From NCBI RefSeq assembly GCF_003334385.1, contig NZ_QOWN01000024.1: a stretch of 64,000 nt of DNA; one strand, given 5' to 3'. This DNA is from Escherichia coli. GTDB taxonomy: Bacteria > Pseudomonadota > Gammaproteobacteria > Enterobacterales > Enterobacteriaceae. The translations under genes were made by a program, and so were the position numbers. Positions 15,900 to 57,587 of the stretch are shown here, one piece after another (the stretch's first letter is position 1; each line of letters opens with the position of its first letter). The notes beneath the pieces were generated by a model. The model ran no database searches. It was given only the letters and a program-made list of their open reading frames with translations, and had not been told where the DNA came from.

Positions 15900-17309
15900 T
15901 TAGACGCTGTAGTACAGCTCAAACTCTACCGGATGCGGAGTCATACGCACGCGGTCATCTTCTTCGCGACGCAGTGCGATGTACGCATCAATTGCTTCGT
16001 CAGTGAACACGCCACCGGCTTTCAGGAACTCGCGGTCCAGATCCAGTTCGTTCAGTGCTTCTTCCAGAGAGCCTGCAACCTGTGGGATCTCTTTCGCTTC
16101 TTCTGGCGGCAGGTCATACAGGTTTTTGTCCATGGCTTCGCCCGGATGGATCTTGTTCTTGATACCATCAAGACCGGCCATCAGCAGGGCAGCAAAGCAC
16201 AGGTACGGGTTAGCTGCCGGATCCGGGAAACGTACTTCGATACGACGTGCTTTCGGAGAAGAAACCACCGGAATACGGATAGACGCAGAACGGTTACGCG
16301 CAGAGTAAGCCAGCATTACCGGTGCTTCATAGCCCGGGACCAGACGCTTATAAGAGTTGGTGGTCGGGTTTGCCAGGGCGTTAATCGCTTTAGCGTGTTT
16401 GATTACGCCGCCAATGTAGTACAGCGCCTGCTCAGACAGACCTGCGTATTTGTCGCCTGCGAACAGGTTAACGCCGTTTTTAGACAGAGACATGTGGCAG
16501 TGCATACCGGAGCCGTTATCACCGAACATCGGTTTTGGCATAAAGGTCGCGGTTTTACCGAAGCGGTGCGCTACGTTGTGCACAACATATTTGTAGATCT
16601 GAATTTCGTCAGCTTTTTTGGTCATGGTATTGAAGCGGGTAGCCACTTCGTTCTGACCAGCAGTCGCTACTTCGTGGTGATGGGCTTCAACCACCAGGCC
16701 CATCTGTTCCATCACCAGACACATTTCAGAACGAATATCCTGAGCAGAGTCTACCGGCGGAACCGGGAAGTAACCGCCTTTCACTGCCGGACGGTGACCT
16801 TTGTTACCACCTTCATATTGGGTGGAGGAGTTCCATGCGCCTTCGATATCGTCGATAGCAACGTGAGAACCGGAGATAGATGATCCGAAACGGATGTCAT
16901 CGAACAGGAAGAATTCAGGTTCTGGCCCGAACAGTACGGTGTCGGCAATGCCAGTGGAACGCAGGTAATCTTCGGCGCGCTTCGCAATGGAGCGCGGGTC
17001 ACGGTCATAGCCTTGCAGGGTGCCAGGTTCAAGGATGTCGCAACGGATAATCAGGGTGGAGTCGGCGAAGAACGGGTCAATCACTGCGGTGGATGCGTCT
17101 GGCATCAGCACCATGTCGGACTCGTTAATGCCTTTCCAGCCGCCAATCGAGGAGCCGTCAAACATTTTGCCTTCTTCGAAGAATTCAGCATTCACCTGAT
17201 GAGCAGGGATAGTGACGTGCTGTTCTTTACCTTTAGTATCGGTGAAGCGCAAATCAACAAACTTCACTTCGTGCTCGTTCAGCATCGTCAGTACGTGTTC
17301 AGCGGACAT
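15900..17309 (-). CDS. glnA: glutamine synthetase
   Basis: 469 aa, [24 protein letters not shown]...; adenylylation-site region NLYDLP present. Confidence 0.97.
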
Positions 17310-17390
17310 ACTTTAACTCTCCTGGATTGGTCATGGTCGTCGTGGTAACGAAATCTGCAATTATTTTGGCCGTGTCGCCGTAAAAAAGAT

Positions 17391-17409
17391 AAAGCGAAAT
17401 CTGTGCCAA
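17391..17409 (-). promoter_or_regulatory. glnAp2 sigma54 promoter (-24 GG / -12 GC)
   Basis: Minus-strand TTGGCACAGATTTCGCTTT matches the TGGCAC-N5-TCGCT sigma54 consensus upstream of glnA. Confidence 0.8.
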
Positions 17410-17482
17410 CTTTTAAATTGCCCCTAAAAGGCGTTATCATGCGCACCATCGTGCAAAAGGGCTGCACCACGATGTGAACGTT

Positions 17483-17537
17483 GCACCAATATAGTGCTTC
17501 AATGGAAACATTAAGCACCATGTTGGTGCAATGACCT
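17483..17537 (-). promoter_or_regulatory. NtrC enhancer binding sites upstream of glnA
   Basis: Two dyad elements on the minus strand: tgcaccaacatggtgct and gcactatattggtgcaac (TGCACC-N5-GGTGCA type). Confidence 0.75.
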
Positions 17538-17681
17538 TTGGATAACCCTTTTTATGCTCCGTGAAAGCGATCACAAAGGGACTCTGCAATACTTGTTTGC
17601 GGAGGATGTTTGTGATCCTGTTTTGTAGTGCGATTAATCCGTGTACAATAACGCGCTATTTCTAATGCCTGAGGCAAAGTT

Positions 17682-19505
17682 GTGATCGAAAAATTGCGTA
17701 ATATCGCCATCATCGCGCACGTAGACCATGGTAAAACTACCCTGGTAGACAAGCTGCTCCAACAATCCGGTACGTTCGACTCTCGTGCCGAAACCCAAGA
17801 GCGCGTGATGGACTCCAACGATTTGGAGAAAGAGCGTGGGATTACCATCCTCGCGAAAAACACCGCTATCAAATGGAATGATTACCGTATCAACATCGTT
17901 GATACCCCGGGGCACGCCGACTTCGGTGGTGAAGTTGAACGTGTAATGTCCATGGTAGACTCAGTGCTGCTGGTGGTTGACGCATTTGACGGCCCGATGC
18001 CGCAAACGCGCTTCGTAACCAAAAAAGCGTTTGCTTACGGCCTGAAGCCGATTGTTGTTATCAACAAAGTTGACCGCCCTGGCGCGCGTCCTGATTGGGT
18101 TGTGGATCAGGTATTCGATCTGTTCGTTAACCTCGACGCGACCGACGAGCAGCTGGACTTCCCGATCGTTTACGCTTCTGCGCTGAACGGTATCGCGGGT
18201 CTGGACCACGAAGATATGGCGGAAGACATGACCCCGCTGTACCAGGCGATTGTTGACCACGTTCCTGCGCCGGACGTTGACCTTGACGGTCCGTTCCAGA
18301 TGCAGATTTCTCAGCTCGATTACAACAGCTATGTTGGCGTTATCGGCATTGGCCGCATCAAGCGCGGTAAAGTGAAGCCGAACCAGCAGGTCACTATCAT
18401 CGATAGCGAAGGCAAAACCCGCAACGCGAAAGTCGGTAAAGTGCTGGGCCACCTCGGTCTGGAACGTATCGAAACCGACCTGGCGGAAGCTGGCGATATC
18501 GTGGCGATCACGGGCCTGGGCGAACTGAACATTTCTGACACCGTTTGCGACACGCAAAACGTTGAAGCGCTGCCGGCACTCTCCGTTGATGAGCCGACCG
18601 TTTCTATGTTCTTCTGCGTTAACACCTCGCCGTTCTGCGGTAAAGAAGGTAAGTTCGTAACGTCTCGTCAGATCCTGGATCGTCTGAACAAAGAACTGGT
18701 ACACAACGTTGCGCTGCGCGTAGAAGAAACCGAAGACGCCGATGCGTTCCGCGTTTCTGGTCGTGGCGAACTGCACCTGTCTGTTCTGATCGAAAACATG
18801 CGTCGTGAAGGTTTCGAACTGGCGGTATCCCGTCCGAAAGTAATCTTCCGTGAAATCGACGGTCGTAAACAAGAGCCGTATGAAAACGTGACGCTGGACG
18901 TTGAAGAACAGCATCAGGGTTCTGTGATGCAGGCGCTGGGCGAACGTAAAGGCGACCTGAAAAACATGAATCCAGACGGTAAAGGCCGCGTACGTCTCGA
19001 CTACGTGATCCCAAGCCGTGGTCTGATTGGCTTCCGTTCTGAGTTCATGACCATGACTTCCGGTACTGGTCTGCTGTACTCCACCTTCAGCCACTACGAC
19101 GACGTACGTCCGGGTGAAGTGGGCCAGCGTCAGAACGGCGTACTGATCTCTAACGGTCAGGGTAAAGCGGTCGCGTTCGCGCTGTTCGGTCTGCAGGATC
19201 GCGGTAAGCTGTTCCTCGGTCACGGTGCAGAAGTTTACGAAGGTCAGATTATCGGTATTCATAGCCGCTCTAACGACCTGACGGTAAACTGCCTGACCGG
19301 TAAGAAACTGACCAACATGCGTGCTTCCGGTACTGACGAAGCCGTTGTTCTGGTTCCGCCTATCCGCATGACTCTGGAACAAGCTCTGGAGTTCATCGAT
19401 GATGACGAACTGGTAGAAGTGACTCCAACCTCTATCCGTATTCGTAAACGTCACCTGACGGAAAACGATCGTCGTCGCGCTAACCGCGCACCGAAAGACG
19501 ATTAA
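17682..19505 (+). CDS. typA: ribosome-dependent translational GTPase TypA/BipA
   Basis: 607 aa, GTG start; G-domain motifs [21 protein letters not shown]. Confidence 0.95.
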
Positions 19506-19526
19506 TTTCGTTTTTTAGTTATAAAA

Positions 19527-19555
19527 AACCTGCCATCGCTGGCAGGTTTTTTTTT
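19527..19555 (+). terminator. rho-independent terminator after typA
   Basis: Hairpin cctgccatcgctggcagg followed by a T-run. Confidence 0.8.
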
Positions 19556-19721
19556 ACCTGTCGTGAGCGCACACCAATGCGAGTATCTCCCTTATAAGTC
19601 TGTGATTACGTCAATAGAGAGCTTTGTCACAATTATCTGCAAAGTCATACACCGTTAATTGCTTTCTTTTTTGGCGTAAGCGTAAGATGCTTCATCTGGT
19701 TTAAACCAAAAGGATTAAACA

Positions 19722-20432
19722 ATGGCGGAGAATCAATCCACCGTAGAAAATGCAAAAGAGAAACTGGATCGGTGGTTGAAAGATGGCATCACCACGCCGG
19801 GTGGAAAACTCCCTTCAGAAAGAGAGCTGGGAGAACTGCTGGGCATTAAACGTATGACGCTGCGCCAGGCGTTGTTGAACCTCGAGGCAGAATCCAAAAT
19901 CTTCCGTAAGGATCGTAAGGGGTGGTTCGTGACCCAGCCGCGATTTAATTACAGTCCGGAGCTGTCAGCGAGCTTTCAGCGGGCCGCAATTGAGCAAGGA
20001 CGAGAGCCTTCCTGGGGGTTTACCGAGAAAAACCGTACCAGCGATATTCCCGAGACGCTCGCGCCACTGATTGCAGTGACACCATCAACTGAACTCTATC
20101 GCATCACCGGCTGGGGGGCGCTGGAAGGACATAAAGTTTTCTATCACGAAACATATATTAATCCTGAAGTTGCTCCGGGTTTTATTGAACAACTTGAAAA
20201 CCACTCATTTTCTGCAGTCTGGGAAAAGTGCTACCAAAAAGAGACGGTAGTAAAAAAATTGATTTTCAAACCCGTCAGAATGCCGGGCGATATCAGCAAG
20301 TATCTTGGCGGTTCTGCGGGTATGCCAGCGATCTTAATTGAAAAGCATCGCGCCGACCAGCAAGGCAATATTGTCCAGATAGATATTGAATATTGGCGAT
20401 TTGAGGCCGTAGACCTCATCATTAATCTGTAG
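19722..20432 (+). CDS. yihL: GntR-family transcriptional regulator YihL (HTH plus UTRA-like effector domain)
   Basis: 236 aa; N-terminal HTH region (LPSERELGELLGIKRMTLRQAL). Confidence 0.8.
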   Translation: MAENQSTVENAKEKLDRWLKDGITTPGGKLPSERELGELLGIKRMTLRQALLNLEAESKIFRKDRKGWFVTQPRFNYSPELSASFQRAAIEQGREPSWGFTEKNRTSDIPETLAPLIAVTPSTELYRITGWGALEGHKVFYHETYINPEVAPGFIEQLENHSFSAVWEKCYQKETVVKKLIFKPVRMPGDISKYLGGSAGMPAILIEKHRADQQGNIVQIDIEYWRFEAVDLIINL

Positions 20433-21420: not shown

Positions 21421-21521
21421 TAAGTTTTAACTCATACGCAGTTAATAAAACCATTCTATATGAATGGTCGGTATCTTATTGCCTTTAAAACAGTGATTTT
21501 AAAAATCGCTTAGGGGATGTT

Positions 21522-22787
21522 ATGCTCACGAAAAAGAAATGGGCGTTATTTAGTCTATTAACACTGTGTGGCGGTACAATTTATAAATTACCGTCGCTGA
21601 AAGATGCGTTTTATATCCCGATGCAGGAATATTTCCATTTGACCAATGGTCAAATTGGTAATGCCATGTCGGTAAACTCATTTGTTACCACAGTGGGCTT
21701 TTTTCTGTCTATTTATTTTGCCGATAAACTACCGCGCAGATACACCATGTCATTCTCACTCATTGCGACAGGATTACTGGGTGTTTATTTGACGACAATG
21801 CCGGGGTATTGGGGCATCCTCTTTGTCTGGGCGCTATTTGGCGTTACTTGCGACATGATGAACTGGCCGGTCTTGCTCAAGTCGGTAAGTCGATTGGGCA
21901 ATAGCGAACAACAAGGTCGGTTGTTTGGCTTCTTCGAAACAGGGCGTGGCATTGTCGATACCGTGGTGGCATTTTCTGCGTTGGCAGTATTTACCTGGTT
22001 TGGCAGTGGCTTATTAGGTTTTAAAGCAGGCATCTGGTTCTATTCCCTTATTGTGATTGCCGTAGGCATTATTATTTTCTTTGTCCTGAATGACAAAGAA
22101 GAGGCACCGTCCGTTGAGGTGAAAAAAGAAGATGGGGCATCGCAACACACCAGTATGACCTCGGTGCTGAAAGACAAAACTATCTGGCTTATCGCTTTCA
22201 ACGTCTTCTTCGTTTACGCGGTTTACTGTGGCCTGACATTCTTCATTCCATTCCTGAAAAACATCTATCTATTGCCCGTTGCGCTGGTGGGGGCTTACGG
22301 CATCATTAACCAATACTGTCTGAAAATGATTGGTGGACCGATTGGTGGCATGATTTCAGATAAGATCCTGAAATCGCCGAGTAAATATCTATGCTACACC
22401 TTTATCATCAGTACCGCTGCGCTCGTACTGTTGATTATGCTGCCGCACGAAAGTATGCCGGTCTATTTAGGGATGGCATGTACGCTGGGCTTTGGCGCGA
22501 TAGTCTTTACACAGCGAGCCGTATTTTTTGCACCTATCGGCGAAGCAAAAATTGCTGAAAATAAAACAGGCGCGGCGATGGCGTTGGGTAGCTTTATTGG
22601 TTACGCCCCGGCGATGTTCTGCTTCAGTCTGTATGGCTACATTCTGGATTTAAATCCGGGGATTATTGGCTACAAAATCGTGTTTGGCATTATGGCCTGC
22701 TTCGCATTCTGTGGTGCGGTGGTTTCCGTAATGCTGGTTAAGCGTATTAGCCAACGTAAGAAAGAGATGCTGGCGGCTGAAGCTTAA
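21522..22787 (+). CDS. yihN: MFS-type transporter YihN
   Basis: 421 aa, 12 predicted hydrophobic helices. Confidence 0.8.
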   Translation: MLTKKKWALFSLLTLCGGTIYKLPSLKDAFYIPMQEYFHLTNGQIGNAMSVNSFVTTVGFFLSIYFADKLPRRYTMSFSLIATGLLGVYLTTMPGYWGILFVWALFGVTCDMMNWPVLLKSVSRLGNSEQQGRLFGFFETGRGIVDTVVAFSALAVFTWFGSGLLGFKAGIWFYSLIVIAVGIIIFFVLNDKEEAPSVEVKKEDGASQHTSMTSVLKDKTIWLIAFNVFFVYAVYCGLTFFIPFLKNIYLLPVALVGAYGIINQYCLKMIGGPIGGMISDKILKSPSKYLCYTFIISTAALVLLIMLPHESMPVYLGMACTLGFGAIVFTQRAVFFAPIGEAKIAENKTGAAMALGSFIGYAPAMFCFSLYGYILDLNPGIIGYKIVFGIMACFAFCGAVVSVMLVKRISQRKKEMLAAEA

Positions 22788-22793
22788 TTAATG

Positions 22794-22870
<77 letters not shown>

Positions 22871-26510: not shown

Positions 26511-28547
26511 TTAGATGTTTTTTAACGAGGCGAACAGTGCAGCCCATTCGCTGTCGGCGCGATAAAAGACCGGCGGCTTGCCGATGGGCGCTTCAACAGT
26601 TATTTCTCCACCGTGGAAGGTTTCTCCGGTCCAGGCGTGGACCCAGTTATCCTCTGGCAGATAGAGCGTCCAGTCGCTGCGACCTTCTTCGTGTACCGGA
26701 GCAACCAGAATGTCGCGACCTAACAGGTACTGATATTTCAGGGAATAGGTCTGCGCGTCGTCTTCGTAATGCAGGAACAGCGGGCGCATAACCGGCAGGC
26801 CGGACTTCGCATTCAGCGCGACGGCCTCTTTCAGGTAAGGTTTCAGGGTGGTGAAGACGGTGGTCATACGGGCGAAATGGGCGATGGTTTCCGCGTCGCC
26901 GTCAAACTGCCAGTTGTCGCCAGGACGGTTACCTTCGTGGGTGCGCATCATCGGCGTGAAGGCGCTGAAATCGCACCAGCGCAGCAGCAGCTCTTTGCTG
27001 CGCTTCATCTCAAACAGGGTGGTATAACCGCCAATGTCGCTGTGATGCAGGCCATGTCCGGTCATTGCCAGAGATAGCGCCGCCGGGACAACCGACGCCA
27101 GGCCATCGTCCAGACTCCAGTCCACGTTCTGGTCACCCGCCCACATCATGGTGGAGTATTTCTGGCTACCGGTAGAACCGGCGCGCATAAAGAAGAGGAT
27201 CTCGCCGAGCTTGCCCGTTTCTTCAAGGGCTTCGTAGTTACATTTCGCCCACAGCGCGGGCCAGGCGTTATGCATAATTTCCGCGCTGATGCCGTTATGC
27301 AGGTACGTGTCGGTGGGCAGATACTCGCCGAAGTCAGCCATCCAGCCGCCGCAGCCGAGTTCAATCATGTTCTTTTTGATAACTTCCTTGAACCAGGCGT
27401 AGGCTTCCGGATTGGTGAGATCGACAACGCCGCCGTAGAACTCGCCAAACTCCACCAGATAGTCGCCACCGGCGACATCTTTTGCCAGATAACCGCGCTT
27501 TGCCGCCTCTTCGCAGAGATCTTTATCACTGGCAACATACGGGTTGATATAGGCAAGGAACTGCACGCCCTCTTTGTTCCACTGCTTGATACGCGAATCC
27601 AGTTGCGGGTAGTTTTCGCTGTTCCACTTCCAGTTCCACATCACGCGTTTGCCAAAAGAGGTCATACGAATACCGGACCAGTCCTGCGCCCAGATGCCGT
27701 TGACCTTCACGCCCGCGTTACGCATGGTGTCCAGTTTCTTCTGGCACACTTCCGTCCCGCCCTGAATGCCGAGCGTTACTCCGTCATAAATCCAGTCGGG
27801 CAGTTCTGGCTGGCGTCCCAGCAGGGCGGTTAATTTTTCCAGCAGGGAGATGTATGTGTCAGCACATTCAAAACGCAGCGTTGCTTTGTCTTCCCACAGC
27901 GCCAGTTCATGGTATTCCGGGGCACTAAAGTCGAAGTTCATATAGCAACTGTTATCAACATGGCAGTAATACTTCTGCGTGCTGACAAACGTAGGCTGTG
28001 GGAAGAAAGTCCAGTAATAGTCGCCGCCCGCATTTTCTTTGCAGTCGGCCTGCCAGGTGACATAGGTTTGTTTATTGCGACCAACGCCTTGTTCACTGGT
28101 CCATAGCGGGAACGGTTTGCCACGCAGATCGAAGTAGGAAAACTGTTCGCCGCAGCCGTAGATATGGTCCTCTGGTTGAGCGGCAAGGCGCAGCCAGATA
28201 CGGTTGTGGTTAAGGTTGTCGTTTTGTAGTTCCAGCAATAAACGGCCCTGATCGTCGGCAGAGATATTCAGCGTGGCGCTAATGTCAGAACCACGGCTGA
28301 AATGGATTAACCAACCATCCGGCGACTGGCTGACGATGGCGTCGGTAAGCGCAATTTTCTCCTGTAGTTTATCTTTAATGCTGAAATTGCCGCGGAACAT
28401 ATCGATATCCGCAATACCTGAACCAATCCATAAACAAGGATTATCTTTGCTATGGGTTAAAATAAGACGCTGTTGAAAATGTAGGGTAAAACTGTCGTTA
28501 TTCTGATGAAACTGAAAATCTGGTAATTGTGGGCGTGGCGTATCCAT
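26511..28547 (-). CDS. yihQ: sulfoquinovosidase YihQ (glycoside hydrolase family 31)
   Basis: 678 aa; GH31 catalytic region (WMADFGEYLP). Confidence 0.92.
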   Translation of the reverse strand: MDTPRPQLPDFQFHQNNDSFTLHFQQRLILTHSKDNPCLWIGSGIADIDMFRGNFSIKDKLQEKIALTDAIVSQSPDGWLIHFSRGSDISATLNISADDQGRLLLELQNDNLNHNRIWLRLAAQPEDHIYGCGEQFSYFDLRGKPFPLWTSEQGVGRNKQTYVTWQADCKENAGGDYYWTFFPQPTFVSTQKYYCHVDNSCYMNFDFSAPEYHELALWEDKATLRFECADTYISLLEKLTALLGRQPELPDWIYDGVTLGIQGGTEVCQKKLDTMRNAGVKVNGIWAQDWSGIRMTSFGKRVMWNWKWNSENYPQLDSRIKQWNKEGVQFLAYINPYVASDKDLCEEAAKRGYLAKDVAGGDYLVEFGEFYGGVVDLTNPEAYAWFKEVIKKNMIELGCGGWMADFGEYLPTDTYLHNGISAEIMHNAWPALWAKCNYEALEETGKLGEILFFMRAGSTGSQKYSTMMWAGDQNVDWSLDDGLASVVPAALSLAMTGHGLHHSDIGGYTTLFEMKRSKELLLRWCDFSAFTPMMRTHEGNRPGDNWQFDGDAETIAHFARMTTVFTTLKPYLKEAVALNAKSGLPVMRPLFLHYEDDAQTYSLKYQYLLGRDILVAPVHEEGRSDWTLYLPEDNWVHAWTGETFHGGEITVEAPIGKPPVFYRADSEWAALFASLKNI

Positions 28548-42818: not shown

Positions 42819-45800
42819 TTACACCTTTTCCACATTCACAAGGAAGGACTTAAACTCCGGCGTCTGCGTGTTCGCATCACCAACGAATGGCGTTAAAGTA
42901 TTGGCAATAAAGCCTTTTTTAGCTACGCCTTCATAGCCCCAGTGAATCGGAATACCGATGGTATCGATATCTTTGCCGTTCGCTTTCAGCGTGCGAATAC
43001 GTTTGGTCACCACCGCTTTGGCTTTGATATAGCCACGGTTGGAGGAGACTTTCACGGTATCGCCCTGGGCAATGCCAAGTTTATTCGCCAGCGACTCCCC
43101 GATTTCCACAAACTGCTCTGGCTGCAAAATCGCGTTCAACAGCGCGTGTTTGGTCCAGTAGTGGAAGTGCTCGGTCAGACGATAGGTGGTTCCGACATAC
43201 GGGAACTTATCGGCTTTACCCAATGCTTCGGCGTCGTCTTTAAAGATACGTGCAGCCGGGTTCGAGATAACGTTTGGATGCAGCGGGTTAGTTCCCAGCG
43301 GCGTTTCAAACGGCTCGTAGTGTTCCGGGAACGGACCTTCCGCCATCTTATCGAGGGCAAACAGACGCCCCATGCCTTCCTGCTGCATGATAAACGGCCC
43401 GACGCCGCTACCCGGAGGCGCTGCGCTGTAGTCCGGAATATCCCAGCCGGTCCACTTAGTGCCGTCCCATTTCAGCAACTGACGCTTCGGATCCCACGGG
43501 TTACCCTGCGGATCTGCGGAGGCGCGGTTATACAGAATGCGGCGGTTAAGCGGCCATGCCCATGCCCAGCCCAGCGTGTTACCGAGGCCAGACGGATCGG
43601 CGTTATCACGGCGTGCCATCTGGTTGCCTTCCGGCGTCCAGCTACCGGCGAAAATCCAGCAGCCACAGGAGGTTGTACCGTCATCGCGCAATTGGGCGAA
43701 CGAACTAAGTTGTTGGCCTTTCTTGACGATAACCGCACCGGTTGCCGGATCGGTAATATCGGCCAGCGCCTTACCGTTGCTCTCCATCGCCACTTCTTCT
43801 GAAGATGGCTCATGCGGAATGGCGTAGTTCCATGTCATGTTCAGCACCTGGTCCGGGTTCGCGCCACCCCGTTCGGCATACATCTTGCGCAAGCGCAGGA
43901 AGATACCGGAGAGGATCTCGCCGTCAGTCAGCGCAATCCCCGGGGCGTCCGCACCTTTCCAGTGCCACTGTAACCAGCGACCTGAGTTAACGATAGAACC
44001 GTTCTCTTCCGCGAAGCAGGTCGATGGCAGACGGAACACTTCGGTCTGGATCTTCGACGAGTCAACTTCGTTCAGCTCACCGTGGTTCTGCCAGAAGTTA
44101 GAGGTTTCAGTGTTCAGTGGGTCGATGGTGACGAGGAACTTCAGTTTCGACAGACAACCGATCACTTTGTTTTTGTTCGGGAATGAGGCAACAGGGTTAA
44201 AGCCCTGGCAGATATAGCCATTGACCTTGCCCTCTTTCATCATCTCGAAGTATTGCAGGACGTCGTAGCCTTTATCCCACTTCGGCAACCAGTCAAAGCC
44301 CCAGCTATTTTCCGCCGTCGCTTTATCACCAAAGAAGGCCTTCATCATAGAGACGAAGAATTTCGGGTAGTTGCCCCAGTAGTTTACCTGGCCTTCCAGC
44401 AGCGGTTTTGGCGTGTTGGCGGTAAGGTAGGTTTGCAGATCGGTCTGCTTCTCGCTTGGCAGCGTCATGTAACCTGGCAGGCTCTGCGACAGCAGCCCCA
44501 GGTCCGTCAGCCCCTGAATATTGGAGTGACCGCGCAGGGCGTTAACGCCGCCGCCTGCCATCCCCATATTGCCGAGCAGCAGCTGGATCATCGCCATCGT
44601 ACGAATGTTTTGCGCACCAACGGAGTGTTGCGTCCAGCCGAGGGCATACAGGAACGAGGCAGTTTTATCGTGAGCACTGGTTTCTGCGATGTATTCGCAG
44701 ACTTTCAGGAACGCGTCTTTTGGCGTACCACAGATGTTTTCAACCACATCTGGCGTGTAGCGGGAAACGTGCTGTTTCAGCAAGTTCCACACGCAGCGCG
44801 GATGTTGCAGCGTGGTATCGCGTTTGGCGAAGCCGTTTTCGTCCAGTTCATAAGTCCAGGAGGATTTATCGTACTTGCGTTTTTCCGCGTCGTAGCCGGT
44901 GAACAGGCCATCTTCAAAGCCGTAATCCTCACGCACGATCAGGCTGGCGTTGGTATAGGCTTCGGTGTATTCGCGGTTGAATTTTTCATTGTTCAGCAGG
45001 TACAGCAATACGCCTGACAGGAAAGCAATGTCAGTACCGGAACGAATAGGGGCATAGTAGTCAGCTACCGCCGCCGTACGCGTAAAGCGAGGATCGATCA
45101 CAATCAGTTTCGCGCCGTTGTGAATTTTGGCTTCCATCGCCCAGCGGAACCCGACCGGGTGAGCTTCAGCGGCGTTACCGCCCATCACCACGACGAGGTT
45201 GGCGTTCTTGATGTCGACCCAGTGGTTGGTCATCGCACCGCGACCAAATGTTGGAGCAAGACTTGCTACCGTTGGTCCGTGTCAGACACGCGCCTGGTTG
45301 TCGACCGCGAGCATACCCAGCGCGCGGGAGAATTTTTGCGTTAAATAGCCGGTTTCGTTACTCGACGCGGAAGCACACAGCATCCCGGTGGAGAGCCAGC
45401 GGTTAACAGTCACGCCTTCGGCGTTTTGCGCAATGTAGTTAGCATCGCGGTCTTCTTTCATCAGTTTGGCGATGCGATCAAACGCCTCTTCCCAACTGAT
45501 TTGCTGCCATTTATCAGAACCTGGCGCACGGTATTCCGGAAACTTCAGACGGCTTTCGGAGTGGATGAAATCCACCAGGCCAGCGCCTTTCGGACAAAGT
45601 GCACCGCGGTTGACCGGGTGATCCGGATCGCCTTCGATATGGAAGATAGATGCTTTGGCGTTTTTTGCTCCGTCACCGAGGCTGTACATCAACAGCCCAC
45701 AGCCTACGGAACAATAGGTGCAGGTATTACGGGTTTCGCGGGTGCGCAGCAGTTTATACTGCCGGGTTTCCGCGAGTGCTACGCTGGGTGCAAAACCCAG

Positions 45801-45869
45801 TGCCGCTGCCGTGGTGCCTGCCATACCGCCAGCGCAGATCTTAAAGAACTGCCTTCTGCTGACCTGCAT
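42819..45869 (-). CDS. fdoG: formate dehydrogenase-O major subunit (selenoprotein, in-frame UGA = Sec at 45282-45284)
   Basis: Two ORF-track pieces (195 aa and 804 aa) in the same frame separated by a single TGA; Tat signal RRQFFK at the N-terminus; molybdopterin oxidoreductase motifs; total 1016 codons. Confidence 0.92.
45235..45281 (-). promoter_or_regulatory. SECIS stem-loop directing selenocysteine insertion in fdoG
   Basis: Sequence immediately 3' of the UGA (cacggaccaacggtagcaagtcttgctccaacatttggtcg) resembles the fdhF SECIS arrangement. Confidence 0.6.
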
Positions 45870-46062
45870 GGATTGCTCCTTGTTTCGACATTGTCACGTC
45901 CCATTTACATTCGCTTGCTGCGTGTGCAGGGAGTGGGAGTTATTTTTCTTTGCGGAAGGGGCCGCAAAGGTCCAGAATTGGCTCAATTTCCCTCCATCCA
46001 GGAAGGGTTTGTAACAGAATACCATAATGTTGGTGTGTGTGTTCTTATCTGGTTAAGAGAAA

Positions 46063-46896
46063 GTGAAAAAAACACAGCGAAAAGAAATCGAAAATGTGAC
46101 AAATATCACAGGTGTTCGTCAAATTGAGTTATGGCGGCGTGATGATTTACAACACCCACGGTTAGATGAGGTCGCGGAAGAAGTTCCCGTTGCGCTGGTC
46201 TACAACGGCATTTCGCATGTGGTGATGATGGCGTCGCCCAAAGACCTTGAGTACTTTGCGCTCGGTTTTTCGCTTTCCGAGGGGATTATCGAAAGTCCGC
46301 GCGATATCTTCGGCATGGATGTCGTTCCTTCCTGTAATGGTCTTGAAGTACAAATTGAGCTTTCCAGCCGCCGCTTTATGGGGTTGAAGGAGCGCCGCCG
46401 GGCGCTGGCGGGACGTACGGGCTGTGGCGTATGCGGCGTGGAGCAACTTAATGACATCGGAAAACCGGTGCAGCCGCTACCGTTCACCCAGACGTTTGAT
46501 CTCAACAAACTGGATGATGCATTACGTCATCTCAACGATTTTCAGCCAGTGGGGCAACTGACTGGTTGTACTCACGCCGCTGCCTGGATGTTGCCATCTG
46601 GCGAACTGGTCGGCGGGCATGAAGACGTGGGTCGCCATGTGGCGCTGGACAAACTGTTAGGCCGCCGGTCACAAGAAGGGGAAAGCTGGCAGCAAGGTGC
46701 GGTACTGGTTTCCAGTCGTGCCAGTTATGAAATGGTGCAAAAGTCGGCGATGTGCGGCGTAGAGATTTTGTTTGCGGTGTCTGCCGCGACCACGCTTGCT
46801 GTAGAAGTGGCTGAGCGCTGTAATCTGACACTGGTAGGTTTTTGTAAACCGGGTCGGGCAACGGTTTATACCCATCCGCAGCGTTTGAGCAATTAA
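46063..46896 (+). CDS. fdhD: formate dehydrogenase sulfurtransferase FdhD
   Basis: 277 aa. Confidence 0.92.
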
Positions 46897-46904
46897 TTAA
46901 AATA

Positions 46905-46945
46905 AGTCCTGCGAAATATATTAAATTGCAGGACTTATTCATTTC
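46905..46945 (+). terminator. terminator hairpin after fdhD
   Basis: aataagtcctgcgaaatatattaaattgcaggacttatt palindrome then T-rich tract. Confidence 0.7.
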
Positions 46946-47048
46946 GTGAATTTTATTATTTTATTTATAAACAAAATGCGTGTAGTGGCGTTTTCTTTTT
47001 TCATTTATTATGTTCACTCTCTTATCTATATATTTATAAGGCAATTAA

Positions 47049-48104
47049 ATGAAAAGGAATTTATTATCTTCCGCTATTATAGTCGCCATCATGTCCCTCG
47101 GTCTGACGGGTTGTGATGATAAAAAAGCCGAAACAGAAACGCTCCCGCCTGCCAATAGTCAACCTGCCGCACCAGCTCCTGAAGCGAAACCTACTGAAGC
47201 TCCCGTTGCAAAAGCAGAAGCTAAACCTGAAACACCTGCGCAACCGGTGGTCGATGAACAAGCGGTTTTCGACGAAAAAATGGATGTCTATATCAAGTGC
47301 TACAACAAGTTACAGATCCCGGTACAGCGCAGTCTGGCGCGTTATGCTGACTGGCTGAAAGATTTTAAACAGGGGCCTACCGGTGAAGAGCGTACTGTTT
47401 ATGGCATCTACGGCATTAGTGAATCCAACCTCGCTGAGTGTGAAAAAGGCGTAAAAAGTGCTGTGGCGTTAACGCCTGCGCTGCAACCAATTGATGGCGT
47501 GGCGGTGAGTTATATCGATGCTGCCGTGGCGTTGGGTAATACCATTAACGAAATGGATAAATATTACACCCAGGAAAATTATAAAGACGATGCGTTTGCG
47601 AAAGGGAAAACGCTGCACCAGACATTCTTAAAAAATCTGGAAGCCTTTGAACCTGTAGCCGAATCTTATCATGCGGCGATTCAGGAAATTAATGATAAGC
47701 GTCAGCTTGCGGAACTGAAAAATATTGAAGAAAGAGAAGGGAAAACATTCCACTACTACTCTCTGGCAGTCATGATTTCAGCGAAACAAATTAATAACCT
47801 GATATCGCAAGATAAGTTTGATGCAGAAGCGGCAATGAAGAAAGTGTCTGAACTGGAAACGCTGGTGGCGCAGGCCAAAGAAGCGGATAAAGGCGGCATG
47901 AATTTCTCGTTTATTAATTCGGCAGGCCAGTATCAACTCGAGGCTAAAAAATACGTTCGCCGCATCAGAGATAAAGTCCCGTACTCTGACTGGGATAAAG
48001 AGCAACTTCAGGACGCAAACTCAAGCTGGATGGTCGAAGACTCTTTCCCGAGAGCATTACGCGAGTACAACGAAATGGTTGATGACTATAATAGCCTGCG
48101 TTAA
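47049..48104 (+). CDS. yiiG: lipoprotein YiiG (DUF3829)
   Basis: 351 aa; lipobox LTGC after the signal peptide. Confidence 0.88.
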   Translation: MKRNLLSSAIIVAIMSLGLTGCDDKKAETETLPPANSQPAAPAPEAKPTEAPVAKAEAKPETPAQPVVDEQAVFDEKMDVYIKCYNKLQIPVQRSLARYADWLKDFKQGPTGEERTVYGIYGISESNLAECEKGVKSAVALTPALQPIDGVAVSYIDAAVALGNTINEMDKYYTQENYKDDAFAKGKTLHQTFLKNLEAFEPVAESYHAAIQEINDKRQLAELKNIEEREGKTFHYYSLAVMISAKQINNLISQDKFDAEAAMKKVSELETLVAQAKEADKGGMNFSFINSAGQYQLEAKKYVRRIRDKVPYSDWDKEQLQDANSSWMVEDSFPRALREYNEMVDDYNSLR

Positions 48105-48127
48105 ACGTTTTTGATGATAAATGCAGT

Positions 48128-48150
48128 GTCGGATGCGGCGCATCCGACAC
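48128..48150. terminator. bidirectional terminator hairpin between yiiG and the convergent frvR-derived ORF
   Basis: gtgtcggatgcggcgcatccgacac palindrome. Confidence 0.6.
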
Positions 48151-48153
48151 AGT

Positions 48154-49659
48154 TCACCCCTTGTGAAGTAACTCCATAAATGCCTCATATCCTGTTAACC
48201 CGGCAATAACCTCTGCCGGATGCTGACACAATACGCTTGCCAGATAGCTGAATATTTTCAACTCGTGACGCGCATCGGCGGCGGCGCAGGCGATCAAGAC
48301 ATGGTTAATGACTTCGTTATTCACCTCAACTGGTTGGGCGAGGGTAATAAAAAATCCACGAAAACGTCGCTCCTGTTCGCTCCAGCAATGTGGGATGGCG
48401 AGGCGATTAACAATCAGGTTTTCACCTTCGCCTTCGCGGGCGATGATCCGTTGCGCTTCATCGGCGGTAATATGGTGTTGTGCCACTAATTGCGCACAAA
48501 TTTGCCGGGTAATATGTTGCCAGCTTTCACCGCGTACATTCGAATAATGAAAACTTCCGGGGGCAGAGAAAAAACGCTCCGGTTGCTGGCGAATAAATGC
48601 CGTCGCCAGAAAATGTTTTATTTGTTCGATACCGGCAGCCGTAATGATATTTTTTACGGTGATGTAATTATTGACCGCGTCATCCAGTAAATAATGGCTG
48701 TTGTTAATGATCAATAACGGCTCAATCTCTTCGCGAATGGCAACAAGTTCGCTTAAGCTACGGGCAATAATCACCCGACAATGTAAAACATCGCGCTCAA
48801 TGGCGAGCTGATTAATGGTGGCAATCGCGTTCTGGTCCGAGAGCAAAATGATCGGCTGGCGTTCGTTTTGATGCCGCTCCAGCGCACAGGCAAAATACAA
48901 ACCGATCAGATCGCTGTCGAAAAGGGGAATATCGAGCTGTTCACGCAGTAGCGTAATAAAGTGCAGACTCATATCAAAGGCCGCAGGCCAGGCGGCTTTC
49001 AGGTTATTCATGCTGCTCTGGCGGTGCTCAGCAATCCACACTGGTGCGGCAAGGCAACGTAATAAATGCCCGGTAATATTCTCAACCAGCTGCGCATCAA
49101 TAATATTCAATGACGCGATGCCCGGCACCCTTTGCAGCAACCCCTGCACATTATCGGCTGAAATTACCTGCGCTTGCTGATGCTGTTTCTCTATCAAACC
49201 CGTCAGGGTTCTTACAGCGTTATCACCAAGAAACAGACCGCTATGTTCAACGATTTGTTTTATCTCGTCACCGGGATATTGCGGCCACTCATCGGTCAGT
49301 TGATTACGCAGGGCGTAAATCGCCAGAATCAGGCTGGAGAGATAATCACCCTGCATGAGCGGCCAGCGGTGTTGGTTGTCGCAGGCCGTGGATAAATGCT
49401 GAAGGTTGTCTCGTGTTATGCCCGCCAGCGGAATTAAAAACGGATCTTTGCGCAGCAAGTTCGCCAGCAAGATAACGCGTTTCTCTTCTTCTACCATGGC
49501 AAACAGCAGATTACGCGCTTTGTCGAGATAGATGGCGTAGTTATGCGCACCGTGAGATTTCAGCACTGCTTCCAGTTCTGGCCAGATGGGATTATGCCGA
49601 CGCTGATACTCTTCGTGGGCGTCGGGGTTTACCTGCATGACAAAGGCTTTGCGGATCAT
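48154..49659 (-). CDS. in-frame fusion ORF: RhaM (L-rhamnose mutarotase) N-terminal ~57 aa joined to the C-terminal ~444 aa of an FrvR-like PTS-operon regulator; marks a deletion of frvA-frvB-frvX
   Basis: 501 aa ORF starting [57 protein letters not shown] (RhaM N-terminus as I recall it), then continuing [12 protein letters not shown]... to a C-terminus next to yiiG, where frvR lies in K-12. Junction near 49480-49495. Confidence 0.65.
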
Positions 49660-49668
49660 GTTTGCTCC

Positions 49669-50494
49669 TTACAGCGCCAGCGCACTGGCGAGTGGCGTAA
49701 CGCCGAAACGCTTGCCGAGCGCTATCAACTCTTCACGGCTGATGGTCTGTTTCATGCCGCCCATCGAATAAACCTTCACTAATACTTGTGCTGATTTTTC
49801 TGCGGTGTCGATTAAACCGAAGATTTCATCCAGCGTCGGTCCGCTGCCGAAGACGCCGTGGAAGGGCCACAACACCAGCGAATGTTTTTGCATCTCTTGT
49901 GCGGTCGCCTGGCCGATTTCGTCCGTGCCGGGCACCATCCACGGCAAAATGCCAACGCCATCCGGGAATACCACCAGACACTCGGTGCTGCCTTCCCACA
50001 GTTGGCGAGTGAAGACCGCGGTGTCGTTTTCAAGTACATAGGTGAGGGCGGATCAGGTTGGTGGCGTGGCAGTGCATGATCACCCGATCTTTGCCGTTGG
50101 TGGCTTTAATGCGCTCGCAGTGGGAAAGGAAGTGAGCCGGAAGTTCGGAAGTGGGGACGGCTTCGTTGGTTAACCCCCAAAGAATGTGGTAGCCCGCGCC
50201 GTCGCTGTCGACTTTTACGATGCCTAAGTTAGCCGCAGGATCAAGCTGGACGTTACGGAAGAATTTGCCCGAGCCGGTGACAATAAACGGTGTATTTGCC
50301 AGTAAAGGCATGGGCTGGCTGAGCGGGATATAGCGCGGTTGTTGGTGGAAATTGTCGTGATATGGTGCGATATCGGCGTCATCCAGGCGTAGCGTCAGGT
50401 TGCCGCCGTTGCGCTCATCCCAGCCTTTCAGCCAGGCGTCGGTGGTGGCTTTGATCATTCCCTGGACAAACCAGGACTGAGTAATGTTTTGCAT
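49669..50494 (-). pseudogene. rhaD: rhamnulose-1-phosphate aldolase rhaD disrupted by a +1 frameshift
   Basis: N-terminal 211 aa ORF (true start [11 protein letters not shown] at 50494) ends NLIRPHLCT* at 50030. The C-terminal part continues in another frame ([33 protein letters not shown]...). Total 826 nt versus 825 expected; the extra base is in gggcGgatc near 50050. Confidence 0.8.
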
Positions 50495-50524
50495 GTTCTG
50501 TGTTCCTGTAAATTCGGTGTTGTC

Positions 50525-50760
50525 GGATGCACGACCCGTAGGCCGGATAAGGCGCTCGCGCCGCATCCGGCAATCAATGCCTGATGCGACGCTGTCGCGT
50601 CTTATCAGGCCTACAACTATTGCCGACCTGTAGGCCGGATAAGGCACTTGTGCCGCATCCGGCAATCAATGCCTGATGCGACGCTGTCGCGTCTTATCAG
50701 GCCTACAACTGTTGCCGACCCGTAGGCCGGATAAGGCGCTCGCGCCGCATCCGGCAGTGT
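50525..50760. repeat. tandem BIME/REP array (about 2.5 copies of a ~95 bp unit) between rhaD and rhaA
   Basis: Repeated unit gtaggccggataaggc...gccgcatccggcaatcaatgcctgatgcgacgctgtcgcgtcttatcaggcctacaact. Confidence 0.9.
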
Positions 50761-53773
<3,013 letters not shown>

Positions 53774-54610
53774 ATGACCGTATTACATAGTGTGGATTTT
53801 TTTCCGTCTGGTAACGCGTCCGTGGCGATAGAACCCCGGCTCCCGCAGGCGGATTTTCCTGAACATCATCATGATTTTCATGAAATTGTGATTGTCGAAC
53901 ATGGCACGGGTATTCATGTGTTTAATGGGCAGCCCTATACCATCACCGGTGGCACGGTCTGTTTCGTACGCGATCATGATCGGCATCTGTATGAACATAC
54001 CGATAATCTGTGTCTGACCAATGTGCTGTATCGCTCGCCGGATCGATTTCAGTTTCTCGCCGGGCTGAATCAGTTGCTGCCACAAGAGCTGGATGGGCAG
54101 TATCCGTCTCACTGGCGCGTTAACCACAGCGTATTGCAGCAGGTGCGACAGCTGGTTGCACAGATGGAACAGCAGGAAGGGGAAAATGATTTACCCTCGA
54201 CCGCCAGTCGCGAGATCTTGTTTATGCAATTACTGCTCTTGCTGCGTAAAAGCAGTTTGCAGGAGAACCTGGAAAACAGCGCATCACGTCTCAACTTGCT
54301 TCTGGCCTGGCTGGAGGACCATTTTGCCGATGAGGTGAATTGGGATGCCGTGGCGGATCAATTTTCTCTTTCACTGCGTACGCTACATCGGCAGCTTAAG
54401 CAGCAAACGGGACTGACGCCTCAGCGATACCTGAACCGCCTGCGACTGATGAAAGCCCGACATCTGCTACGCCACAGCGAGGCCAGCGTTACTGACATCG
54501 CCTATCGCTGTGGATTCAGCGACAGTAACCACTTTTCGACGCTTTTTCGCCGAGAGTTTAACTGGTCACCGCGTGATATTCGCCAGGGACGGGATGGCTT
54601 TCTGCAATAA
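53774..54610 (+). CDS. rhaS: AraC-family activator RhaS
   Basis: 278 aa. Confidence 0.95.
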
Positions 54611-54683
54611 CGCGAATCTTCTCAACGTATTTGTACGCCATATTGCGAATAATCAACTTCGTTCTCTGGCCGAGGTAGCCACG

Positions 54684-55532
54684 GTGGCGCATCAGTTAAA
54701 ACTTCTCAAAGATGATTTTTTTGCCAGCGACCAGCAGGCAGTCGCTGTGGCTGACCGTTATCCGCAAGATGTCTTTGCTGAACATACACATGATTTTTGT
54801 GAGCTGGTGATTGTCTGGCGCGGTAATGGCCTGCATGTACTCAACGATCGCCCTTATCGCATTACCCGTGGCGATCTCTTTTACATTCATGCTGACGATA
54901 AACACTCCTACGCTTCCGTTAACGATCTGGTTTTGCAGAATATTATTTATTGCCCGGAGCGTCTGAAGCTGAATCTTGACTGGCAGGGGGCGATTCCGGG
55001 ATTTAACGCCAGCGCAGGGCAACCACACTGGCGCTTAGGTAGCATGGGGATGGCGCAGGCGCGGCAGGTTATCGGTCAGCTTGAGCATGAAAGTAGTCAG
55101 CATGTGCCGTTTGCTAACGAAATGGCTGAGTTGCTGTTCGGGCAGTTGGTGATGTTGCTGAATCGCCATCGTTACACCAGTGATTCGTTGCCGCCAACAT
55201 CCAGCGAAACGTTGCTGGATAAGCTGATTACCCGGCTGGCGGCTAGCCTGAAAAGTCCCTTTGCGCTGGATAAATTTTGTGATGAGGCATCGTGCAGTGA
55301 GCGCGTTTTGCGTCAGCAATTTCGCCAGCAGACTGGAATGACCATCAATCAATATCTGCGACAGGTCAGAGTGTGTCATGCGCAATATCTTCTCCAGCAT
55401 AGCCGCCTGTTAATCAGTGATATTTCGACCGAATGTGGCTTTGAAGATAGTAACTATTTTTCGGTGGTGTTTACCCGGGAAACCGGGATGACGCCCAGCC
55501 AGTGGCGTCATCTCAATTCGCAGAAAGATTAA
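54684..55532 (+). CDS. rhaR: AraC-family activator RhaR
   Basis: 282 aa from a GTG start ([13 protein letters not shown]); the ORF is open further upstream and overlaps the rhaS 3' end. Confidence 0.85.
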
Positions 55533-56563
55533 TTCGCCATGCCGATGCCGACGATGTTAGCGGCGACAATAATCACCACACAACCGAGGCTCAACACCGT
55601 TACCGGACGGCGTCCTGCATTGTTCCACTCTTTCAGCACCAGCCCGACGATACCGCCGCACAATACATAGAAACTCATATGCAGCATCCAACTGATGTAG
55701 TCATACTGCGCCGGAATGCGGGCGTGGCCCCAGGCATAGAAAAAGAATTGCAGATACCACATCAACCCGCCCAGTGTCGAGAGTAACACATTGTGAATGA
55801 TCAGCGATTTTGCCAGCGAGAAGTCGGCTTTTAGCGACAAATCCTTCACTTTTGCCAGACGAATAAAACAGAAACCGAGGTTAATGATCGCGCCGCCGCC
55901 CATGATGACAACATAGCTTGGCAGAGCGACATACAGTGGATCGACGCCAAGTGCGGCAGCGGCTTCATGCATCGGTTTTGCGGCGTTCATCGCAAAGGAC
56001 ATCCCGGCAGAGAAAATGCCGCACATCACCGCCAGCACCAGCCCTTTTTTCAGATTGAACTCTTCGGCTTTAATGCCCATCTTGCGCTCTTTCAACTGCC
56101 CGGCGCGAGTTACAATCCCTACGCCAATCAGCGCCACCAGAACGCCGAGCAACGTCATGCGTCCGCCTTCGGTGCTAATCAACACATCGAAATTGCCGTT
56201 GATAATTGGCGTCATCAGCGTACCGACAATCAACGTAATGCCAATGGCGATGCCAATTCCCATCGACATGCCGAGATAACGCATGGTCAGGCCGTAGTTG
56301 ATATTACCGATCCCCCACATAGCGCCGAACAGAAAAACAGGCAGTAGCGTAGAGAGACTAAACGAGCTGTAATACGCCCAGAAATTCGGTAGTAACAGGG
56401 CGCTGATGGCCCACGGCAGAATAATCCACGAAACAATCCCACCGACTGACCACATGGTTTCCCATGACCATTTTTTTACTTTTTTGAACGGAGCGTAAAA
56501 ACAGGCTGCACTGGCCGCGCCGATCAAATGCCAAAATATCCCCATCGTAATCGCGTTACTCAT
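55529..56563 (-). CDS. rhaT: L-rhamnose:proton symporter
   Basis: 344 aa polytopic membrane protein. Confidence 0.95.
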
Positions 56564-57552: not shown

Positions 57553-57587
57553 TGAACAATTTCAAAATAAAAACAATGATCCGATAA

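Follow-up and report, generated by a model that had tools for sequence, protein, structure and literature searches.

Within the L-rhamnose locus of an Escherichia coli strain, the reading frame of rhaD, which encodes the aldolase acting on L-rhamnulose-1-phosphate, appeared to be split into two separate ORFs. This raised the question of whether the break is a genuine mutation, whether it abolishes the enzyme, and what it would mean for a cell in which the preceding steps of the pathway might still be operational. The stretch of DNA analysed (64,000 nucleotides, referred to as the window) carries mobB, polA, glnALG, the yih cluster, fdoGHI-fdhE, fdhD, yiiG, the rha locus, sodA, kdgT, cpxRAP, fieF and pfkA, and rhaD occupies the same operon position as in K-12 (order rhaT, rhaR, rhaS, rhaB, rhaA, rhaD). 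The features of the disrupted gene are the following.

49669–50494, minus strand: rhaD, from its ATG (50494–50492) to the native TAA (49671–49669).
50050–50051, minus strand: site of a 1-bp insertion, GG where intact alleles carry one G (alignments to K-12 MG1655, strain 210221272, SCU-104 and eight relatives sharing the deletion described below).
50030–50494, minus strand: 5′ fragment of rhaD in the ORF list, comprising RhaD residues 1–148, six out-of-frame codons (RPHLCT) and TGA, 154 aa.
49669–50029, minus strand: 3′ remainder of rhaD, out of frame with the start.
49669–49974, minus strand: ORF within the 3′ remainder, with a GTG start at codon 174, residues 174–274, 101 aa.
49823, minus strand: T224I missense mutation located past the frameshift, with a plus-strand A in place of the G of relatives.

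The gene measures 826 nt in the window, versus 825 nt in K-12 MG1655, strain 210221272 and SCU-104. At the insertion, the plus strand of the window reads GAGGGCGGATCAGG, with GG at 50050–50051, and alignment showed that the same stretch reads GAGGGCGATCAGG in these three strains; immediately around 50050/50051, the form with the extra G is GGCGGATC and the form lacking it is GGCGATC, so that the inserted base adjoins a GATC (Dam) site. On the coding strand, ATC-GCC-CTC-ACC becomes ATC-CGC-CCT-CAC-CTA-TGT-ACT-TGA, and the frame is lost after codon 148 (Ile148, the last residue of …HCHATNLI) to reach a premature TGA at 50030–50032, seven codons past the insertion. The initial annotation had described a +1 frameshift at gggcGgatc that breaks the frame after HCHATNLI and leaves 826 instead of 825 nt, a description that proved exact in the sequence, the ORFs and the reference alignments. 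The alignment to reference rhaD that it had called for yielded one extra G relative to each of K-12 MG1655, strain 210221272 and SCU-104. The rhaM′-′frvR deletion, the T224I substitution and the occurrence of the same insertion on a second haplotype, all treated below, were not part of that annotation.

The residue altered by T224I is a T in E. coli as well as in Salmonella and Klebsiella, whereas E. marmotae has A. Since the substitution follows the frameshift, it has no bearing on function. No complete genome matched a 71-mer around 49823 at 99% or more.

As is typical of a frameshift pseudogene, the frame is disrupted relative to intact orthologues and runs into a premature stop. The 5′ fragment is 100% identical to residues 1–148 of the RhaD chains in PDB (1GT7, 1OJR and others), and H141, H143 and H212, which we take from structures 1GT7 and 1OJR to be the zinc ligands of RhaD, are found at their expected positions. 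The same structures presumably assign ligand or catalytic roles to E117, E171 and E192. These residues are divided by the lesion, with E117, H141 and H143 on the 5′ fragment, H212 on the 3′ ORF, and E171 and E192 downstream of the frameshift; H141, H143, H212 and E117 do not reside on one polypeptide, and residues 149–173, including E171, are present in neither ORF of the ORF list.

The products were further compared with models of the RhaD family, namely NCBIfam NF002963 (274 positions; cut-off 170 bits) and the TIGR02624 equivalog (cut-off 400.95 bits), next to Pfam PF00596. When the frame was conceptually repaired, the translation corresponded to a full-length RhaD scoring 476.7 bits with NF002963 and 468 bits with TIGR02624, above both cut-offs. 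The 154-aa product covered only positions 1–148 of the 274 positions of the NF002963 profile, reaching 250.9 bits with this model (above its cut-off) and 236 bits with TIGR02624 (below its cut-off), and the 101-aa ORF covered profile positions 175–273 of 274 with 167.5 and 169.5 bits, both below cut-off. Neither encoded product thus gave a full-length match to the RhaD equivalog models above the curated cut-offs. Judged from its sequence, the locus is rhaD by descent, while none of the polypeptides that it encodes is a complete RhaD. A null allele is the best-supported reading of these data, and no active class II aldolase would be expected to form from the split gene.

Directly downstream of rhaD, the window deviates from its relatives in a second respect, since all of the best-matching genomes hold ca. 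3.8 kb more DNA. This difference stems from a 3,826-bp deletion with its junction at 49489/49490, corresponding to positions 16005–19830 of the K-12 locus (L003), which takes the 3′ end of rhaM, frvA, frvB, frvX and the 5′ end of frvR, and leaves the following fusion.

48154–49659, minus strand: in-frame fusion ORF joining RhaM(1–57) to FrvR(139–582), 501 aa (ORF list, alignment to K-12).

Among complete genomes, the junction was found only in SCU-104. The fusion protein was retrieved from 149 index blocks of a large protein collection, with E. coli KTE14 and an entry labelled 'Shigella boydii' among the sources named. Of nine genomic contexts of this deletion lineage that were examined, eight (including the complete genome of SCU-104) carry an intact 274-aa rhaD with neither the extra G nor an A at 49823, and this A was absent from all other members of the lineage that were examined. 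The disrupted gene is therefore a derived state among close relatives with intact rhaD. The deletion hence predates the frameshift and T224I, both of which arose afterwards in one sub-lineage. The frameshift, the rhaM-frvR deletion and T224I could in turn serve as three nested sub-lineage markers.

Across 5,426 complete E. coli genomes in RefSeq, the insertion itself did not occur once. A 71-mer spanning the insertion had no match at 99% or more among the 4,074 complete genomes in which it found a match, 3,853 of which matched with one difference, and the best whole-gene rhaD identity among 5,403 complete genomes was 99.8%. A 33-mer of the mutant sequence returned 0 matches in a JGI metagenome scan, and literature searches retrieved neither a described rhaD frameshift allele nor a mention of the run, sample or scaffold accessions. 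An allele shared with a well-known strain was ruled out on these grounds, given the 0 of 5,426 genomes with the insertion and the lack of any complete genome with the change at 49823. A laboratory derivative of K-12 was ruled out as well, as ca. 80 SNPs separate the window from K-12 between yihU and frvR despite the K-12-identical rha genes. The window is most closely related to wild isolates, SCU-104 and ERZ826796 among them.

Because the disruption hinges on one base, the possibility that the extra G is not in the DNA of the organism, which the initial annotation had kept in mind as a single-base assembly error, has to be weighed against the evidence from other assemblies. One-base indels are the commonest type of consensus error, and the inserted base abuts a GATC site, a Dam context in which nanopore base-calling can err. 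However, the change from G to GG involves no long homopolymer and its context does not favour a systematic read error. Moreover, the assembly is not indel-prone, because strain 210221272, its nearest relative with an alignment along all of the window, differs from it over all 64 kb by 33 substitutions, a reference-only IS1, one large deletion and the 1-bp indel in rhaD, with no other 1-bp indel. Over 33 kb, SCU-104 likewise shows the rhaD indel as the only one of 1 bp, next to 7 substitutions and an IS insertion and 12-bp duplication that are both in SCU-104, and K-12 MG1655 (30.5 kb aligned) adds one further 1-bp difference, inside a REP array at 50531. Together with the 35 of 35 checked genes that are uninterrupted in window 1–40 kb, these difference lists against three relatives ruled out an error-rich assembly. 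In addition, Logan contig ERR1948963_167 (5,304 nt, 7 samples/runs) is 100% identical to window 45258–50561, including the extra G, T224I and the deletion junction, and contig DABAMG010000011.1 of the separate NCBI draft GCA_012504395.1 is 100% identical to window 42154–55659, with no rhaD protein called on it; the exact 154-aa and 101-aa products are also on record in public assemblies. The window appears to derive from yet another assembly, since by coordinates it would run ca. 120 nt past the end of DABAMG010000011.1. Repeat sequencing of one isolate, or a single project, might underlie both the 7 Logan samples and the NCBI draft, but agreement among three assemblies and at least seven runs makes an assembler artefact unlikely, and we regard a sequencing or assembly error of any kind as very improbable. 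Even less credible, and in our view barely worth entertaining, is a rhaD that still works, either through a +1 ribosomal shift between the insertion and the TGA or through association of the two fragments into an active enzyme. RhaD is a tetramer of two-domain subunits, an architecture that could speak for complementing fragments, and since no more than 7 codons lead from the insertion to the stop, a shift there would alter few residues. Nonetheless, inspection by eye of AUC CGC CCU CAC CUA UGU ACU UGA revealed no slippery site and no codon at which the P-site tRNA would re-pair one base downstream, and the GTG of the C-terminal ORF lacks a Shine-Dalgarno sequence at a usable distance, the sole purine-rich stretch upstream of it by the same inspection being GGAAGG, ca. 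17 nt away. The lack of residues 149–173 from both ORFs also argues against a working gene, and the split arrangement is not conserved, occurring in no complete genome. A programmed frameshift of the prfB type (+1), for which a slippery or hungry codon at the stop would be expected, was rejected for the same lack of conservation, and because no re-pairing site was seen in that stretch. A genuine, recent and lineage-specific +1 (G) insertion, which made rhaD a null pseudogene in a natural clone of E. coli resembling phylogroup A, is the reading that we hold with high confidence.

Whether this insertion was a one-off accident, neutral or deleterious, is a further matter, as the same insertion (at rhaD coding position 444/445) was found in metagenome scaffold ERZ28647534 scaffold_1301 (L005/L016). 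This scaffold is K-12-like and originates from an infant gut, carries intact rhaM and frvA, lacks T224I and has six SNPs in rhaB; the flanks of the insertion contain no informative SNPs. Because SCU-104 has the deletion but not the insertion, explaining all three states requires recurrence, recombination or a chimeric metagenome scaffold. Recurrence could reflect an insertion hot spot, or selection for rhaD loss in the gut, and it fits in with this that both differences of the window from its nearest relatives over 13.5 kb lie in rhaD. However, a search for repeats and quasi-palindromes near the insertion uncovered only an unrelated 9-nt direct repeat, and none that accounts for a hot spot. 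The other rhaD lesions in public data are all different and scattered, which is the pattern of random decay, and in natural rhamnose-negative STEC the lesions are in rhaS, rhaR or rhaB rather than in rhaD (PMC7354573). The scaffold, being metagenomic, could be a chimera of co-resident strains, and recombination could also move the allele. The extra SNP (T224I) within 826 bp has a probability of ca. 0.1–0.2 after ascertainment (our own estimate from difference counts), and T224I was discarded as a sign of selection since it is not significant once ascertainment is allowed for. The shared insertion on two haplotypes therefore has a low probability of being biologically meaningful, and we think it improbable that it marks either a hot spot next to the Dam site or repeated selection for RhaD loss in gut E. 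coli. If it did, natural populations would be retaining, or generating time and again, an allele that is toxic under certain conditions.

With the genuine null insertion as the preferred reading, its consequence depends on the remainder of the rha locus, where no base differs from K-12 MG1655 across window 50560–56345, a stretch that comprises the end of the REP array, rhaA, rhaB, the control region, rhaS, rhaR and the greater part of rhaT.

50761–52020, minus strand: rhaA (L-rhamnose isomerase), intact, 419 aa, DNA identical to K-12 MG1655, with its ATG at 52020 (the ORF list gives 421 aa, from a TTG two codons upstream of this ATG).
52017–53486, minus strand: rhaB (rhamnulokinase), intact, 489 aa, DNA identical to K-12 MG1655.
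53487–53773, no strand assigned: divergent rhaBAD/rhaSR control region, DNA identical to K-12 MG1655.
53774–54610, plus strand: rhaS, intact activator gene, DNA identical to K-12 MG1655 (annotation of the homologous K-12 region).
54684–55532, plus strand: rhaR, intact activator gene, DNA identical to K-12 MG1655 (annotation of the homologous K-12 region).
55529–56563, minus strand: rhaT (rhamnose/H+ symporter), intact, 344 aa, one SNP relative to K-12 (56346), same allele as SCU-104.

The REP array in the rhaD-rhaA spacer (50500–50760) varies in repeat copy number, the spacer being 266 nt long in the window and in strain 210221272, and 450 nt in K-12 MG1655.

The earlier claim that rhaB and rhaA are intact was thus confirmed by ORFs of 489 and 419 aa with K-12-identical DNA. 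Because rhaA, rhaB, the control region, rhaS and rhaR equal those of K-12, the block in the pathway falls after the kinase step. Rhamnose would then enter the cell and switch on the operon, and its conversion would proceed as far as L-rhamnulose-1-phosphate, a compound that would not be cleaved further. Strains that lack the aldolase and keep the isomerase and kinase accumulate L-rhamnulose-1-phosphate, and in classical genetics rhaD mutants of E. coli are rhamnose-sensitive. A rhamnose-negative phenotype is the reasonable prediction, and the clone probably is rhamnose-sensitive as well, in that rhamnose would inhibit its growth until a second mutation arises in rhaB, rhaA, rhaS, rhaR or rhaT. 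The initial annotation had likewise pointed to the toxicity of an aldolase block with a functional kinase, in line with established knowledge and with the severe attenuation of a Salmonella rhaD mutant in the mouse gut in the presence of rhamnose, as related in PMC11784389, which cites Boulanger 2021, 2022. The same paper gives the inhibition of S. typhosa by rhamnose as the classical case (Englesberg 1960, cited in PMC11784389). The proposal of the initial annotation that the rhaBAD promoter and RhaS/RhaR stay usable for induction holds insofar as these elements are identical to K-12, but needs to be qualified because rhamnose would still be consumed to the toxic phosphate.

The lack of a second-site lesion in the locus suggests a recent event. 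More specifically, for a conditionally harmful allele to persist while rhaB, rhaA, rhaS, rhaR and rhaT are all free of second-site mutations, it must either have arisen very recently or have seldom been exposed to rhamnose. The window thus offers a small natural case of a catabolic pathway interrupted at the one step at which interruption should do harm, seemingly observed while no compensating mutation had yet arisen. In practice, an atypical biotype that is predicted to be rhamnose-negative and probably rhamnose-inhibited matters for rhamnose typing media and for rhamnose induction in this background. In itself, the split rhaD is an ordinary pseudogene that is specific to this strain and concerns a textbook gene, in a commensal-type lineage that was already without rhaM and frvABX; it holds no new mechanism or new biology, and its value is mainly practical.

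Some other observations concern the window outside of the rha genes. An in-frame TGA at 45282–45284 splits fdoG (1,016 codons in total) into ORFs of 195 and 804 aa, and is the normal selenocysteine codon of the alpha subunit of formate dehydrogenase-O rather than a lesion. Around 21500–22800, a gene that is interrupted by IS1 in strain 210221272 is free of IS1 in the window; it is annotated there as an MFS transporter, and we take it to be yihN. The internal stop that strain 210221272 carries in yihQ (26511–28547) is absent, and the sulfoquinovose cluster is intact in the window. Finally, a private A is located at 57556 in the sodA-kdgT intergenic region, where K-12, strain 210221272 and SCU-104 have T.

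Disruption of rhaD is not confined to this clone. The K-12-type 101-aa C-terminal ORF was found in 25 index blocks, and the underlying contigs carry different, independent rhaD lesions. Those in public Logan/ENA contigs (L017–L025) are the following.

Nonsense mutations in rhaD: W166 to stop (497G>A) and Y152 to stop (456T>G).
Six 1-bp deletions in rhaD: at coding positions 431, 464, 500, 511, and 317 together with 491.
A 148-bp deletion in rhaD.

These sporadic pseudogenes of other E. coli assemblies resemble the one described here in affecting the same part of rhaD (coding 317–511), with rhaM and frv downstream, but each is a different mutation, and the exact insertion of the window is shared only by the metagenome scaffold. 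Pseudogenes of rhaD arise sporadically in E. coli, and the case of the window is not very unusual among them.

Natural rhamnose-negative strains have been described among bovine STEC, with frameshifts in rhaS (O26) or rhaR (O165/O172) and lesions in rhaB, and with full-length rhaA, rhaD and rhaM in all of them (PMC7354573). As in the window, 1-nt indels in these strains split an rha gene into two ORFs, lineage by lineage, and they deprive the strains of rhamnose use (PMC7354573). However, they hit the regulators or the kinase and so avoid the toxic intermediate, whereas the insertion in the window affects the one step for which loss is predicted to do harm under certain conditions. A disadvantage of losing rhaD on its own would be expected to produce just such a pattern in STEC.

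A close functional parallel is provided by the classical rhaD mutants of E. coli and Salmonella and by the natural rhamnose sensitivity of S. Typhi (Englesberg 1960, as cited in PMC11784389), which share the block at the aldolase with the rest of the pathway functional. These aldolase-negative mutants are of laboratory origin, whereas the +1 insertion of the window arose spontaneously in an E. coli clone from the wild, with a phenotype that is predicted. The toxicity blocks in araD, mtlD and galE/galT (Boulanger 2021, likewise cited in PMC11784389) reflect the same interruption after phosphorylation, although with another sugar and another enzyme, so that they compare to the split rhaD by analogy only.
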